A DNA stretch of 64,000 bases from positions 372,001 to 436,000 of the forward strand of contig NW_027590264.1 of the NCBI RefSeq assembly GCF_964213995.1, in the 5' to 3' direction. Both the position numbers and the translations under genes were made by a program. The DNA comes from Mustelus asterias. Its lineage: Eukaryota. The notes under the pieces are model-generated. The model saw only the letters and a list, made by a program, of their open reading frames with translations, was not told where the DNA came from and searched no databases. Shown piece by piece: positions 2,134-58,700 of this stretch (its first letter is position 1; the number at the start of each line of letters is the position of its first letter).

Positions 2134-2362
2134 GCCGCAGGTTTCTGGGCCACAGCTGCTGTCTACTGGGTCCCGTTTACAACAGCGGGTCTGACATTGG
2201 CACCTGAATATATTCCCGTGAACTCAAACCCCGAGAACAATCCACATAAACACCATTTAAAACCGTTCACATCGAAGGCAGATTCCTGCTGATTCTTAGA
2301 TTCGCTGGACGAGGGAAGAATTGGCTGCTCTTTAATTGGGGGTCACTGGGAACTCGGCACTA

Positions 2363-2860
2363 ACAAAGAACAAAGAACAATACAGCACAGGAACAGGCCC
2401 TTCGGCCCTCCAAGCCCGCGCCGCTCCCCGGTCCAGGATTGAATCCTGAATCCAGGATCCCCGCCCAATTTTCCAGCCTATCTACATCCTAATATCCTAT
2501 CCACCGAGCTGTCCCTCACAGCTACGATGCTTTGTTCATCACAACCTATTAACTCACCCCCACCCCCCCATTCCAGACCATGTGATCTCCAGGGAGAGGC
2601 GAAAACCCAGAGTGAAAACCCCAGGGCCAATATGGGGAAAAGAAAATCTGGGAAATTCCTCTCCGACCCCCTGTGGCGATCGAAACGAGTCCAGGAGATC
2701 ACACTGGCCCTGATCGGGAAATGCTTCCCAACCCTATTCATTTCCACTTCTGCTTTACGAACACCATCTGAATTCCCTGCCCCCGAGACAGGTTCCCAAC
2801 TATCCGCAGTCTCGCTCTGTACTGGCACCACCAAGATGATCATAGAATGAAGCCTTGAAA
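2363..2860 (-). mobile_element. CR1-type LINE 3' UTR fragment (or derived non-autonomous element)
   Basis: The minus strand ends in the CR1-like terminal stem and short repeat tail GGGCCGAAGGGCCTGTTCCTGTGCTGTATTGTTCTTTGTTCTTTGTT. The same tail type ends CR1 fragments at ~20480 and ~27720. Confidence 0.7.
2578..2712 (+). ncRNA. Candidate structured RNA (multi-helix with pseudoknot), antisense within the CR1 3' UTR
   Basis: Nested helices: 2581-2590/2694-2703, 2593-2599/2658-2664, 2606-2611/2647-2652 and 2619-2623/2633-2637. A loop-tail pairing joins 2622-2629 and 2705-2712. Internal loops are A-rich on the + strand. Function is unknown. Confidence 0.5.
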
Positions 2861-2882
2861 CCATATTTCTAATTAATTGTAG

Positions 2883-3115: not shown

Positions 3116-3343
3116 TGTCAATGTTATCAAGTTAACGGAATTGTTTGCAAGCAGTGGAAAAACAGATAAACGGGTGATTTCCAAATCCGTATCGCAAGCA
3201 AAGTGAAACTTATTCAATTTCGGAACTTGCCAGTTAAGTGCTCTGCAGCTGTGACGATTTCTGCAAAGGTAACATTTAATATGTTCACAGAGCTGATGCT
3301 GGATCTGAACGCCAGGTTAAAGTCCAACAGGGTTTATTTGGTA

Positions 3344-3382
3344 GCACAAGCTTTCGGAGTGTCGCTCCTTCTCCAGGTGAGT
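3344..3382 (-). ncRNA. Second hammerhead-like motif (core mutated)
   Basis: Minus strand reads CTGGAGA-AGGAG-CGACA-CTCC-GAAA-GCTTGTG. The first core box has G in place of the conserved A. Confidence 0.5.
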
Positions 3383-4744
3383 GAGGAGCTGTGTTCACAA
3401 ACAGGGCATATACAGACACAAACTCAATTAAAACGATAATGGTTGGATTGCGAGCCTTTACAGGTAATCAAGTCTTAAATGTACAGATAACGTGAGTGGA
3501 GAGGGGGTTAAACACAGGTTAAAGAGATGTGTATTGTCTCCAGCCAAGACAGTTAGTGAGATTTTTCAAGCCCAGGCAAGTCGTAGGGGTTACAGATAGT
3601 GTGACATGAACCCAAGATCCCGGTTGAGGCCTTCCTCATGTGTGCGGAGCTTGGCTATCAGTTTTGCTCAGCGATTCTGCGTTGTCGTATGTCGTGAAGG
3701 ACGCCATGGAGAACGCTTACCCAAAGATCAGAGGCTGAATGCCCGTGACTGCTGAAGTGTTCCCAACAGGAAGAGAACACTCCTGTCTGCTGATTGTTGA
3801 GCGGTGTTCATTCATCTGTTGTCGTAGCGTCTGCATGGTTTCCCCAATGTACCATGCCTCGGGACATCCTTTCCTGCAGCGTATCAGGTAGATAATGTTG
3901 GTCGAGTCACAAGAATATGTACCGTGTACCTGGTGGATGCTGTTCTCACGTGAGATGATGGCATCCGTGTCGATGATCCGGCACATCTTGCAGAGGTTGC
4001 TATGGCAGGGTTGTGTGGTGTCGTGGTCACTGTTCTCCTGAAGGCTGGGTAGTTTGCTGCTGACAATGGTCTGTTTGAAGTTGTGCGGTTGTTTGAAGGC
4101 AAGAGGTGGGGTGTGGGGATGGCCTTGGTGAGATGTTCGTCTTCATTGACGACATGTTGAAGGCTCCGGAGAAGACGTCGTAGCTTCTCTGCTCCGGGGA
4201 AGTACTTGGTGACGAAGGGTACTCTGTCCGCCGTGTCCCGTGTTTGTTTTCTGAGGAGGCCGGTGCGGTTTTTCGCTGTGGCGCGCCGGAACTGTCGATC
4301 GATGAGTCGAGCGCTATATCTTGTTCCTATGGAGGGTGTCTTTCAGCATCTGTAGGTGTCTATTGCGATCCTCCTCATCCGAGCAGATCCTGTGTATTCG
4401 GAGGGCTTGTCCGTAGGGGATGGCTTCTTTAACATGTTTAGGGTGGAAGCTGGAGAAGTGGAGCATCGTGAGGTTATCCGTGGGCTTGCGGTACAGTGAA
4501 GTGCCGAGGTGACTGTCCTTAATTGAGATGCATGTGTCCAAGAATGCAACCGATTCCGGAGAGTAGTCCATGGTGGCTGTCCTGTCTGGAGACAATACAC
4601 ATCTCTTTAGCCTGTCTTGATGCTCTCTCCACTCACATTGTTTGTATCTTAAAGACTTGATTAGCTGTAAGTATTCGCATTCCAACCATTATTCATGTAA
4701 ATTGAGTTTGTGTCTTTATAAGCTCTGTTTGTGAACAGAATTCC

Positions 4745-4787
4745 CACTCACCTGAAGAAGGGGCTTGGAGCTCCGAAAGCTTGTGTG
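4745..4787 (+). ncRNA. Minimal hammerhead-ribozyme-like motif in the pLTR
   Basis: CTGAAGA, then A-GGGGC-TTGGA-GCTCC, then GAAA-GCTT. This gives the CUGANGA and GAAA core boxes, stem II, and a palindrome at stem III, as known for Penelope pLTRs. Confidence 0.6.
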
Positions 4788-4957
4788 GCCTTTGCGACCA
4801 AATAAACCTGTTGGACTTTAACCTGGTGTTGTTAAACTTCTTACTGTAAAAACTAACAGACAGCAGTCTCGCCGAGCTGGTGCTGGATCTGAACTCAGTG
4901 AGTTCAAACTGTTTTAGTTCAGAGTTCAGAAGATGGTGAGTAATATCCGGCCTCACT

Positions 4958-7949: not shown

Positions 7950-8259
7950 GGTCTCAGTGCACAGTAATACACGGCGCTGTCCCTCATCTTCAAATCTTTC
8001 ATGGACAAGTGAAAAGTGCTTTGTGTCTGGTTGAGATTCCCGCTGAAGTGTCCAAAGCCGGGAGCCGTATCGGTAAACCCATAACTATTGGCTCTGAGCA
8101 GATACTGAGGAGCTCGGTGTGGATACTGGCGATACCAGAACAGGTGATGCTGTATAGCTGAACTCGGCACAGAGTAACTGCAGGGTATTGCTGAATCTTC
8201 ACCCTCTGCTGCTTCAACTCCTGGTTCTGACTGGAACACTGAGTCTCCGTTACTCATCT
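7950..8259 (-). CDS. TRAV: TCR alpha/delta V exon 3 (alpha-like), apparently functional
   Basis: Acceptor TTTTCAG|, then (E)MSNG-DSVFQSEPGVEAAEGEDSAIPCSYSVPSSAIQHHLFWYRQYPHRAPQYLLRANSYGFTDTAPGFGHFSGNLNQTQSTFHLSMKDLKMRDSAVYYCALRP. Confidence 0.94.
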
Positions 8260-27139: not shown

Positions 27140-30100
27140 GATAAAAGTTGGCAAGCCATGTTGCAGCTTTATAGAACCATTGTTAGGCCGCACTTGGAAT
27201 ATAGTGTTCAATTCTGGTCGCCACACTACTAGAAGGATGTGCAGGCTTTGGAGACGGTACAGAAAAGATTTACCAGGATGTTGCCTGGTATGGAGGGCAT
27301 TAGCTATGAGGAGAGTTTGGAGAAACTTGGTTTGTTCTCACTGGAATGACAGAGGCAAGGGGGGTGACCTGATAGAAGTCTACAGGATTATGAGAGGCAT
27401 GGACAGAGTGGATAGTCAGGAGCTTTTTCCCGGGGTTGAAGAGTCAATTACTAGGGGGCACAGGTTTAAGGTGCTAGGGACAAGGTTTAAAGGAGACGTA
27501 CGAGGCAAGTTTTTTCCACAGAGGGTGGTGGGTGCCTGGAACTCGCTGCTGGGAGAGGGAGTGGAAGCAGATACGATAGTGAGTTTTAAGGGGCGTCTGG
27601 AGAAATACAAGAATAGGATGGGAATAGAGGGATATGGTCCCTGGAAGGGGAGGGGGTTTTAGTTCACACATGGTTGGTGCAGGCTTGGAGGGCCGAAGGG
27701 CCTGTTCTTGTGCTGTAATTTTCTTTATTCTAATTTCAGAGAGAGATATATACAGATACAGAGCCATAGAGAGACAGAAACAGGATGGGATTGTGCTGTA
27801 CATGTTTACGAGCTGACATTGAGACACACACGAGATGTACACCAATGATTTGGATGAGGGAACCAAAAATAATATTTCCAAGTTTGCTGATGCCATGAAA
27901 CTTGTTGGGAATGTGAGTAGTGAGAAGGATGTTAAAATGTTTCACAGTGACTTCAGAAAATTGAGTGAATGGGTAAATGCACGGCAGATGCTGTATAACG
28001 TGGACAAACGTGAATTTAACTACTTCGGACAGAGAAGCAGAATGGCAGAGGATGATTTAAATGGTGATAGATTGGGAAATGTTGATATACAAAGGGACCT
28101 GGGTGTCCCAGTACACCAGAGACTGAAAGCAAGCATGCAGCTACAGCAAACAGTTAGGAAGGCAAATGATATGTTGGCCTTCATTGCAAGAGAACTTGAG
28201 GAAAGGGGCAAGGATGTCTTACTGCAGCTGTACAGGCCCTCGGTGAGACCACACCTGGAATATTGTGTACAGGTTTTGTCTCTGTAACTATGAAATGCTG
28301 CACTTACCATAGAGGGAGAGCAGCGGAGGCACACCAGACTGATTCCTGGGATGGCAGGATTGTCGTATGAGGAGAGATTGAGTCGACTGGGCCTGTATTC
28401 ACTGGAGTTCCGAAGAATGAGAGGGGATCGAATTGAAATGTGTAAATTCTGACTGGGCTGGAGTGACTGAATACAGGGATGTTGTTTCCTCCAGCTGAGG
28501 GGCTGAGGGGGTGGGGAGAGGGGGGGGGGGGGCGGGGGAGAGGCTGGAACAAGGGGTCACAGATGGTGAAACTTTGCAATATGTTTAATCTGTAGAAACC
28601 TATCCATCTCAGTCTGTGAACGATGACTGAGCCTCCACAGCCCCCTGGGACAGGGAATTCCAAAGATTTACCATCCTGCAAGCACATGGAATTCAGGAAA
28701 ACTTGGCGAGATGGATCGGAAACTGGTTTAGTAATTGGACACAAAGGGTGGTGTTGGAAGGCTGTTTGAGTGGCTGGAGGCCGGTGTCCAGTGGTGCACC
28801 ACAAGGCTCCGTGCTGGGGGGCTTGTTGTTGTTATACATAAATGAGACAGATGATAATGTGGGGGCAATGATAAGCAAGGTTCCAGATGACACCAAGATT
28901 GGTAGGATGGTTAATAGTGAAGAAGGTTGTAGGTTACAGGAAGATATCGCTGGGTTGGTCAGATAGGCAGAGCAGTGGCAGATGGTATTTGACCCTGATA
29001 GGTGCGAGGTGATGCACTTTGGAAGCAGTAACAAGGCAAGGGAGTATTTAATGAGTTGCAGGACACTGGGAAGCTCAGAGGAACATATGGATCTTGGGCA
29101 ATTATTCACAGATCCCTGAAGGCAGCAGAGCAGGTGAATCAAGTGGTAAAGAAGGCAGATGAGACACTTGCTTTTACCAGTCATGGTGCAGAGTAGAAGA
29201 GCAAAGAGTTAATGTTGGAGTTGTACAGAGCGTTGGTTAGGCCACAGCTGGAGTACCGTGTGCAGATCTGGTCACCACACCAGAGGAAGGATATGATAGC
29301 ACTAGAGGGGGTACAGAGGAGGCTCAGCAGCAAGTTGCCTGGGATGGAGTATTTGAGCTATAAGGAGAGACTGGATAGGTTTGGATTGTTTTCTTTAGAG
29401 CAGAGAAGGCTGATTGAGGTGTGTAAGATTATGAGGGGTATGGACAGGGTGAATAGGAAACGGCTGTTCCCCTTGGTTGAGGGATCAATCATGAGGGGAC
29501 ATAGTTTTAGGGCAAAGGGCAGGAGATTCAGAGGAGAGTTGAGAAAAACATTCACTCAGAGGGTGATGGGAATCAGGAATGTACTGCCTGGGAAGGCAGT
29601 GGAGGTCGGAAACCTTACAACCTTTCAAAAGCATTTGGATGAGCACTTGAAACATCACAACATTCAAAGATATGGTACAAGAGATGGAAAATTGGATTAG
29701 CACAACTTTAGTGGTAGTTACTGTTGGTGCAGACTCATTGGGTCGAAGGGCCTTTTCTTCACTGTACCACTCTATGACTCTGAGGGAAGAAATTCCTCCT
29801 CACAGGAAGCAGAGAGTCGGAATAAATGGGTGCTTTTCTGGTTGGCGGATGGTAACTAGTGGCGTGCCGCAGGGATCGGTACTGGGGCCTCAACTATTTA
29901 CCATTTATATAGACGATCCGGAGGAGGGGACTGAGTGTAGGGTAACAAAGTTTGCAGACGACACAAAGATAAGTGGAAAAGTGAATCGTGTGGAGGGCGT
30001 AGAAGGTATGCAGAGAGATTTGGACAGGCTGAGTGAGTGGGCGAGGATCTGGCAGATGGAGTATAACGTTGACAAATGCGAGGTTATTCACTTTGGAGGA

Positions 30101-55700: not shown

Positions 55701-58700
55701 AGTGGTAAAGAAGGCAGATGAGACACTTGCTTTTATCAGTCATGGCGCAGAGTAGAAGAGCAAAGAGTTAATGTTGGAGTTGTACAGAGCGTTGGTTAGG
55801 CCACAGCTGGAGTACCGTGTGCAGATCTGGTCACCACACCAGAGGAAGGATATGATAGCACTAGAGGGGGTACAGAGGAGGCTCAGCAGCAAGTTGCCTG
55901 GGATGGAGTATTTGAGCTATAAGGAGAGACTGGAAAGGTTTGGATTGTTTTCATTAGAGCAGAGAAGGCTGATTGAGGTGTATAAGATTATGAGGGGTAT
56001 GGACAGGGTGAATAGGAAACAGCTGTTCCCCTTGGTTGAGGGGTCAATCATGAGGGGACATAGTTTTAGGGCAAAGGGCAGGAGATTCAGAGGAGAGTTG
56101 AGAAAAACATTCACTCAGCGGGTGATGGGAATCAGGAATGTACTGCCTGGGAAGGCAGTGGAGGTCGGAAACCTTACAACCTTTCAAAAGCATTTGGATG
56201 AGCACTTGAAACATCACAACATTCAAAGATATGGTACAAGAGATGAAAATTGGATTAGCACAACTTCAGTGGTAGTTACTTGTTGCTGCAGACTCAATGG
56301 GTCGAAGGGCCTTTTCTTCACTGTACCACTCTATGACTCTGAGGGAAGAAATTCCTCCTCACAGGAAGCAGAGAGTCGGAATAAATGGGTACTTTTCTGG
56401 TTGGCGGATGGTAACTAGTGGCGTGCCGCAGGGATCGGTACTGGGGCCTCAACTATTTACCATTTATATAGACGATCTGGAGGAGGGGACTGAGTGTAGG
56501 GTAACAAAGTTTGCAGACGACACAAAGATAAGTGGAAAAGTGAATCGTGTGGAGGGCGTAGAAGGTATGCAGAGAGATTTGGACAGGCTGAGTGAGTGGG
56601 CGAGGATCTGGCAGATGGAGTATAACGTTGACAAATGCGAGTTTATTCACTTTGGAGGAAATAATAGTAAATTGGATTATTATCTAAATGGAAAAAAATT
56701 ACAACATGCTGCTGTGCAGAGGGACCTGGGGGTCCTTGTGCATGAGACGCAAAAACCCAGTCTGCAGGTGCAACAGGTGATCAAGAAGGCAAACGGGATG
56801 TTGGCATTTATCGCGAGGGGGATAGAATATAAAAGCAGAGATGACTTGCTGCATCTGTACAGGGCATTGGTGAGGCCGCAGCTGGAATACTGTGTGCAGT
56901 ATTGGTCCCCTTATTTGCGGAAGGATATATTGGCCTTGGAGGGAGTGCAGAGAAGGTTCACCAGGTTGATACCAGAGATGAGGGGTGTTCATTATCAGGA
57001 GAGACTGATGGAAACATCCTTCCTGTATCTACTCAGCTAATGTTTGGGGGTTGGGGAGAGTTATAGAACAAAGAGATCTCGGGGTACAGGTTCATAGCTT
57101 CTTGACAGTGGAGTCACAGGTGGACAGAGTGGTGAAGAAGGCATTCAGCATGCTTGGTTTCATTGGTCAGAACATTGAATACAGGAGTTGGGACGTCTTG
57201 TTGGAGTTGTACAAGACATTGTTAAGGCCACGCTGGGAATACTGTGTACAGTTCTGGTCACCCTATTTTAGAATGGATATTATTAAACTAGAAAGAGTGC
57301 AAAAAAGATTTACTAGGATGCTACCGGGACATGATAGTTTGGGTTTTAAGGAGAGGTTGCACAGACTGGGACTTTTTTCCCTGTAGCGTAGAAGACTGAG
57401 GGGTGATTTTATAGAGGTCTATAAAATAATGAGGGGCACAGATCAGCTAGATAGTCAATATCTTCTCCCAAAGGTAGGGGAGTCTAAAACTAGAGGGCGT
57501 AGGTTTAAGGTGAGAGGGGAGAGATACGAAAGGGTCCAGAGGGGCAATTCTTTTCACACAGAGGGTGGTGAGTGTCTGGAATGAGCTGCCAGAGGTAGTA
57601 GTAGAGGCGGGTACAATTTTATGTTTTAAAAAGCATTTAGACAGTTACATGGGTAAGATTGGTATAGAGGGATATGGGCGAAACACAGGCAATTGTGATT
57701 AGCTTAATGGTAAAAACTGGGCGGCATGGACAAGTTGGGCCAAAGCGCGTTTCCATGCTGTAAACCTCTATGACTCGACCCTGCTGAGCCCTGTAAGAAT
57801 TGTCCAAGTTTGAATGAGGTCACCTCTCATGCTTCTCAAGTGCATAAAGTAAAAGTCCATTTTCTTTCCTCAGGACAATCCCTCCATCCCAGGAATTAAT
57901 GCAGTGAAATGTCATTGAAGTCCCTCTCGGACAAGAATGTCTTTCCTTCGGTAAGAGGATAAAACTGTCCACAACACTCCGTGTGTGGTTTCACCACTAA
58001 TTCAGCCTCTCCCACATCCCCTTGAAGAGTCTACATCCCCCTCACAACTCACACTTCCACCTGCTTTCATGTCATCTGCAAACTCGGAAATATTACATTT
58101 GATCCCAAACGTCCAAATCAATGATATGGATTGTGAATAGCTGGGCTCCCGAGTACTGATCCTTGTGATAAGCCGCTGGTCACAGCCTGCCACCCTGAAA
58201 ATGACCCATTTGTACCTAAGCTCTTTTTTCTCTCCGTTAACCATTTCTCAATTCATGCCAGTATTATCAGGGTAAATACGTTGCATCACGGGGATAGGGC
58301 CTGGGTGGGAATGTTGTTAGCGCAGGCTCGATGGGCTGTATGGCCTCCTTCTGCACTGTAGGGATTCCATGATTCTAATATGTACATACGTCAGTGAAGG
58401 TGGCAGGGCACTTTGAGAGAGCAGTAAATGAAGTATATGGTATCCCAGCTTTTATTAATGGAGGAATTGAGGACAAGAGTAAGGAGTTCATATTGAACTT
58501 GTATAAGACACTCGTTAGGCCGCATCTGGAGACTGCGCCCAGTTCTGGGCATTGGAGAGAGTGCAGAGGAGATTCACAAGAATGATTCCAGGGAATAAGA
58601 TCCGTAGCTACGAGGGTAGATTGGAGAGGTTGGGACTGTTTTCCTTGGAGGAAAGAAGGCTGAGGTGAGACTTGAGAGAGAGATTCAAGATCCTAAGGGG

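Follow-up and report, generated by a model that had tools for sequence, protein, structure and literature searches.

Which strand of the strongly self-pairing segment near position 2,600 of the window (the whole stretch of 64,000 nucleotides analysed here) acts as RNA, and what might it do for the retrotransposon that carries it? An earlier note had described the segment as a pseudoknotted, possibly catalytic RNA or ssDNA element lying antisense in a CR1 3′ UTR. All coordinates are those of the window unless a locus is named, and the structured part is called the module.

A young CR1 copy carries the module

Positions 2362–2861 (minus strand) hold a repeat copy, 95–99% identical to other genomic copies, that is 5′-truncated and retains 3′ UTR only, with the ORF2 stop expected immediately 5′ of the truncation. 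Longer copies have an ORF2 with endonuclease and reverse transcriptase. Because of this ORF2 and of the microsatellite tail, and in keeping with the 5′-truncated copies, we take the element to be a young CR1 LINE, the name being given from ORF2 and tail type. Its minus-strand orientation, as first proposed, was confirmed by copy identity and by the ORF2 of the longer copies. A 21-letter core pattern of the module had 9,676 matches in the same genome (0 for the reversed control), and this jumping-gene lineage, the long-UTR family with the module, numbers ~9,700 copies there.

The UTR ends in the ordinary CR1 3′ tail (2362–2413, minus strand), which by sequence comparison is common to short-UTR families and consists of a small hairpin and a 7-nt microsatellite without poly(A); ~210 nt lie between the end of the module and this tail. 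Neither AATAAA nor ATTAAA occurs in the long 3′ UTR, and no A-run in it exceeds four. The sole candidate for an encoded third strand is a four-A run at 2466–2475 (minus strand), which lies ~100 nt beyond the 3′ end of the module and, in a related organism, is nearer to it through one flank deletion. Canonical CR1 copies are described without a poly(A) tail in the available part of PMC13343379.

The surroundings were inspected as well. Behind an immunoglobulin V-set gene segment at 1790–2133 stands a recombination signal whose spacer measures 23 nt, and the CR1 copy lies ~230 nt downstream, a setting that resembles a locus of the T-cell receptor type. The V-segment flank with this CR1 insertion is repeated over 3 kb at >99% identity in L001, L002 and L004 (contigs C1151, C1054 and C178), which are either duplicated V cassettes or unmerged haplotypes. 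Broken frames at ~3300–4830 (minus strand) resemble a reverse transcriptase element in L033 (6528–8458) and are presumably Penelope-like; a Pfam search with two of them returned nothing. Another short-UTR CR1 family has two nearly identical 3′ ends, at ~29485–29700 and 56044–56260, each with the same CR1 piece downstream of it, which suggests a duplicated block within the window. Two CR1 ORF2 proteins ~70% identical to those of the present family (P0005 and P0028) are filed under Klebsiella and Proteus names and are probably host contamination in those assemblies.

The fold favours the sense strand

The four Watson-Crick helices and the 8-nt complement reported earlier are present. In plus-strand positions they are P1 (2581–2590/2694–2703), P2 (2593–2599/2658–2664), P3 (2606–2611/2647–2652) and P4 (2619–2623/2633–2637), with the complement at 2622–2629/2705–2712. 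On either strand, none of 200 shuffles folds as stably as the 161-nt stretch (z −3.33 for plus, −3.88 for minus); its folding is more than chance.

Read on the minus strand, the predicted fold and the homologs delimit an ENE-like module of 136 nt (2575–2710), in which a basal stem leads to a three-way junction that bears an arm and a rod, the latter interrupted by two U-rich internal loops. P1 (10 bp; 2694–2703 with 2581–2590) is prolonged, beyond a one-base bulge at 2704, by P0 (6 bp including two G-U pairs; 2705–2710 with 2575–2580). The short arm (2665–2681, minus strand) is a hairpin in which one G is bulged and one U-G pair is invariant. In the rod, P2 (7 bp; 2658–2664 with 2593–2599) places G-C pairs next to the lower U-rich loop (2600–2657), whose 5′ side (2653–2657) reads AA and then UUU and whose 3′ side (2600–2605) has four U followed by a 2-nt bulge. 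P3 (6 bp; 2647–2652 with 2606–2611) closes this loop and splits it from the upper one (2612–2646), which has nine nucleotides including one C on its 5′ side (2638–2646), and four U followed by three nucleotides on its 3′ side (2612–2618). P4 (2633–2637 with 2619–2623) and a 9-nt apical loop close the upper loop.

The fold had been assigned to the plus strand, but the arm needs its U-G pair, which is present on the minus strand only and is kept in all five aligned rows. On the plus strand this invariant pair becomes C-A and the two G-U pairs of P0 become A-C, and the pair probability of the short arm is 0.98 on minus vs. 0.07 on plus. The A-rich linkers noted earlier are indeed seen on the plus strand; on the sense RNA of the LINE, however, they are two U-rich internal loops between G-C stems, and therefore an ENE-like, poly(A)-binding element is indicated. 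To judge from the sequences, the invariant U-G pair and the compensatory changes relative to bird-like homologs (see below) favour the sense strand and this fold. It is highly improbable that the functional strand is an antisense RNA or the first-strand cDNA, on which the linkers are A-rich. The four Watson-Crick helices fold as well on plus, the 161-nt test revealed no competing fold on that strand, and one 140-nt segment had the stronger z-score in antisense (−4.0 vs. −1.7 in sense), although z-scores as a whole were indecisive on strand; with C-A and A-C in place of the wobble pairs, however, the arm is not formed, and the proposed antisense-RNA or ssDNA function finds no support.

Homologs re-pair the stems

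A degenerate pattern run over metagenome contigs gave eight matches, of which four were clear, one was weak and three were read as chance. A covariance model built from five shark-like copies alone found four bird-like elements (E 3e-7 to 1.5e-5). We call this DNA bird-like because a CR1 ORF2 piece in one such contig is closest to stork-labelled proteins (77% identity, with 39–64% to turtle and ~40% to shark or ray proteins). The motif had been expected in CR1 3′ UTRs of other vertebrates, and those of turtles and amphibians may carry it. This held in part: a conserved motif does occur in the bird-like DNA, but the modules have no attached CR1 ORF2 in those contigs, and in the contig with the ORF2 piece that CR1 ends ~700 nt ahead of the module.

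Between shark-like and bird-like modules 18 of 40 pairs are altered on both sides, compared with 2–4 in slid controls, in an alignment that was fitted to the structure and whose four bird-like rows are alike and come from two assemblies, which in effect makes two lineages and one comparison. P1 has other paired letters in the bird-like homologs and P0 is re-paired in them. In P2, the register of which is fixed by invariant flanks, three of the seven pairs are altered on both sides and none is broken. The arm is unchanged in six of six pairs in five of five rows. The bird-like units stand in tandem and have one U-loop each; the lower loop is retained and longer, and the upper one is missing. 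Three second tandem units, which lay outside the pattern selection, keep P2 and the longer U-loop, with a decayed arm (E 8e-7 to 1.4e-4). Within the shark-like genome itself, the difference in conservation between stems and loops was not significant (P 0.16 and 0.57).

Tandem, progressively decayed units, two or three per contig, were observed at L071 ~790–1240, L069 9–304 and L072 962–1254 (minus strand), in a larger repeated region without ORF2. Such units may represent either an array domesticated for RNA stability or the remains of a satellite-like repeat.

Sequencing runs of 11 studies contain part of the UTR of this family. Among the contigs obtained from 6 of 24 runs, the variants listed inside the module of related organisms fall at the bulge, the junction, the loops or a loop edge, and two contigs of one run have flank deletions of 92 and 74 nt that spare the module. 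For more distant organisms, one low-depth contig has a rewritten upper loop with the four U beside P4 retained.

Two lone look-alikes, seemingly decayed relics with other paired letters in the arm, were set aside: L068 1175–1325 (metagenome) and L101 1442–1538 (contig C6 of the module's own genome, G000) scored 24 and 23 bits, barely more than the 17–20 bits of pattern-picked bacterial matches. Six pattern matches in prokaryote genomes and three in metagenomes were read as chance. Viral contigs gave no match to the pattern and no ORF2 relative, and none of 19 matches to a looser pattern passed the model at E 0.001; plasmids gave no motif match. A second motif-bearing family was not found in the module's own genome, where the search met just an unrelated flanking repeat. 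We conclude that the module is a genuine and conserved RNA element of the sense strand.

The module was most likely gained once

The long UTR equals the short UTR plus 440 nt placed between two copies of a 22-nt repeat. Comparison of long and short UTRs puts the insert of the window copy at 2436–2861 (minus strand), with its first ~14 nt cut off, and the 3′ copy of the direct repeat at 2414–2435 (minus strand); the 5′ copy can be seen in L035 at 8148–8169. The short-UTR junction was counted 4,966 times vs. 5,937 times for the long form. In a tree of the last 600 nt of ORF2, for which 34 of 47 extracted rows were kept (25 of 36 long and 9 of 11 short; shorter rows were dropped), the long-UTR copies group as a single clade (100/99) whose terminal branches are short and which arises from within older short-UTR copies; the bootstrap of this tree is not fully settled. 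Eight of the nine outgroup rows have the short UTR and one is interrupted. From these sequences a single gain is the most likely history, with the module arriving as a 440-nt insert.

The module is unnecessary for jumping, because short-UTR sisters jumped without it. These sisters have diagnostic ORF2 changes of their own, and with the count of their junctions they rule out an essential reverse-transcriptase signal. A 3′ recognition stem-loop of the stringent-LINE type would be expected in every mobile copy of a lineage, and the module is absent from the short-UTR sisters.

A rival helix is predicted to win in the window copy

The pseudoknot that had been proposed for the apical loop did not withstand comparison. 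Its 8-nt complement overlaps P4, arises in ~1.1% of shuffled flanks and has no homolog support above chance: an upstream partner of the apical loop beat shuffles in none of the four testable homologs (P 0.13–0.28, with 0.004 in the window copy), one further homolog and a relic in the module's own genome having no loop motif and hence falling outside the four. From sequence and fold prediction, the supposed pseudoknot is a rival 13-bp helix (2622–2712, minus strand; 2700–2712 with 2622–2634) that excludes P1 and P4. In the rival fold a G-rich tract directly 3′ of the module (2553–2569, minus strand) is predicted to pair with the 3′ strand of P2. With the full UTR, the rival fold is predicted to be better by 10 kcal/mol in the window copy and by 3 kcal/mol in copy L035, these being energies of the RNA alone, without the triplex contribution. 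In predictions with growing chains the rival helix forms first. That the rival fold is predicted to win in the window copy is the chief result against an ENE reading.

The balance differs between subfamilies, which are defined by a single change at the bulge (2704) that is not among the variants listed in related organisms; 5,750 copies belong to the larger subfamily vs. 3,950 to that of the window copy. The ENE fold is predicted in 15 of 16 folded copies of the larger subfamily; in the window's subfamily it is predicted in 4 of 36, and the rival fold in 31. The U-tracts of the upper loop are purer and longer in the larger subfamily: the 5′ tract is uninterrupted in 16 of 18 copies, and the 3′ tract has five U in 15 of 18 copies, with four U in 37 of 37 others, homopolymer counts being prone to error. 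Private divergence is 0.35% in the larger subfamily vs. 0.70% in the window type (P 0.063, borderline), and the larger one is probably younger. Its changes look like tuning toward the ENE shape, although they represent one event and are compatible with hitch-hiking.

A predicted poly(A) clamp and its alternatives

ENEs bind poly(A) with U-rich loops and slow decay, according to the accessible parts of PMC7583470, PMC13541005 and PMC8704770. The module has the corresponding architecture of U-rich internal loops with flanking helices, and its two loops are split by a short duplex, the 6-bp P3 (bird-like units have one loop each). The two top pairs of P2 are G-C in five of five rows; the lower stem of the upper loop ends in A-U. 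The lower loop has just three facing U on its 5′ side. It also has two conserved A, which may be compared in outline with the adenosine triad and 3′-end pocket of double-domain ENEs.

From the predicted fold and this analogy, we put the probability that the module is a sense-strand, double-ENE-like RNA, predicted to clamp poly(A), at about 0.55. Its two U-rich internal loops would bind the poly(A) tail of the transcript as U-A-U triple helices, the G-C pairs below the loop would take A-minor contacts, and the triplex would slow deadenylation and decay of the intronless LINE RNA. The weak point is the ligand: such a tail would have to be acquired once transcription had read through the element, or else at an unusual site. 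The module would be an accessory booster rather than a signal that reverse transcription requires. A more elaborate version is doubtful. In it, the 13-bp helix, first in transcription, would hold the module off until poly(A) flips it to the triplex; the clamp would be ancient and portable among vertebrate LINEs; its gain, and then the loss of the off-state, would have driven bursts of shark-type CR1; and the bird-like tandem copies would possibly be domesticated.

Instead, the module might be a different kind of cis-acting signal on the sense strand, one for protein binding, export, packaging or translation, with the arm and junction as active parts and the U-loops binding protein. We regard this as possible but unlikely. 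It would account for the arm having the highest sequence conservation in the module, and for a contig from a more distant organism that has in common with it only the junction, the arm and the 5′ side of P2; no poly(A) source was found in the UTR, and a three-way junction with such an arm is absent from the ENE descriptions in the available text of PMC7583470 and PMC13541005. Conservation of the arm is, however, partly built in, since the homolog-finding pattern covered it, and the tandem units picked up outside that pattern lose the arm and keep the U-loop. An essential reverse-transcriptase signal, moreover, is impossible with 4,966 short-UTR junctions that have no module. Rather improbable, too, is a passenger, that is, a structured piece of an older element that was once functional and is now carried along, mostly misfolded. 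The rival fold predicted in most copies of the window's subfamily, the non-significant constraint within the genome and the sisters that jumped without the module would all fit a passenger, but all stems are intact in a young family, the flank deletions of a related organism spare the module, and the changes in the larger subfamily run toward the ENE shape.

A self-cleaving or ligating ribozyme is a most improbable reading. A three-way junction and an invariant arm with a bulged G would suit one, and ribozymes are known in non-LTR elements, namely at the R2 5′ junction and as twister variants, in the part of PMC8501958 available. The Rfam scan that the earlier note had proposed, however, matched no described family near its threshold: no Rfam 15 self-cleaving ribozyme matched around the module even at E 10, where three weak non-ribozyme matches appeared, and the four homolog loci gave one weak match and no ribozyme family. 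The 5′ end of the module is matched in 9,700 copies and its 3′ end in 9,676, about equal numbers by patterns that differ in strictness, so that insertions do not stop inside it, and three sampled copies that begin within it start at three different places. Cleavage at this place would separate ORF2 from its tail; in R2, by contrast, the ribozyme is situated at the 5′ junction (PMC8501958, same part). The pseudoknot is not conserved. Catalysis thus lacks support from Rfam, copy ends and pseudoknot alike. What survives of the original proposal is a structured retrotransposon RNA with a three-way junction that is not in Rfam; its catalytic, pseudoknotted and antisense parts do not.

Comparison with known systems

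If the ENE works, elements whose DNA copies have no poly(A) would still use a polyadenylated RNA stage, and the long 3′ UTRs of some CR1 families would have a reason. A natural comparison is available in this genome, where some sister lineages lack the insert, some carry it and one carries what seems to be a tuned form. The literature searched held no description of the motif or of ENEs in vertebrate LINEs, although a prior listing is possible in subscription papers or among CR1 consensus 3′ ends. ENEs are listed in viruses, MALAT1-type RNAs, plant, fungal and slime-mould transposons and stickleback retroviruses, with no vertebrate LINE among them, in the parts of PMC7583470 and PMC13541005 at hand.

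The stem-loops of ZfL2-type stringent LINEs resemble the module in being structured 3′ UTR RNA of a CR1-group element (PMC4176376, in part). They are required for ORF2 binding, a role that the short tail (2362–2413) fits here, whereas the module is absent from sister lineages; PMC3747384 and PMC4176376, in the portions available, cover just this ordinary tail signal. The KSHV PAN and MALAT1/MEN-beta ENEs likewise have a U-rich loop flanked by short helices, but both are single-domain. The MALAT1 loops are broken by C and G (PMC7583470, available part), and the upper 5′ tract here by one C. In MALAT1 the A-rich third strand is supplied by the RNA itself, which also has a tRNA-like cut site; here the longest A-run is four, and there was no mascRNA match.

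Closer in setting is the ENE of Evade/Copia93, an Arabidopsis LTR retrotransposon, which is a fold-back with four U-tracts in an unusually long post-ORF spacer and was shown to raise RNA stability and jumping (PMC12501189, as far as its available text goes). Evade/Copia93 is an LTR element with a defined polyadenylated end and was tested, whereas the CR1 module is known from prediction.

Double-domain ENEs of transposons were reportedly described by Tycowski, Shu and Steitz in 2016 and by Torabi in 2021. Those of plant and fungal transposons, such as rice hAT TWIFB1, are like the module in having two U-loops split by a short helix, G-C stems by the loops and a bulge in the lower domain, and they too lie in 3′ UTRs of mobile elements without introns (PMC7583470 and PMC13541005, in the sections available). 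The CR1 host, in contrast, is a non-LTR element of a vertebrate, with copies that terminate in a microsatellite instead of poly(A), and its module is set on a three-way junction from which the conserved arm projects, shows two A rather than a triad at the lower loop and has a rival fold. New here are the correction of the strand, the probable single gain relative to sisters with a short UTR, and a rival fold that is lost in the larger subfamily.
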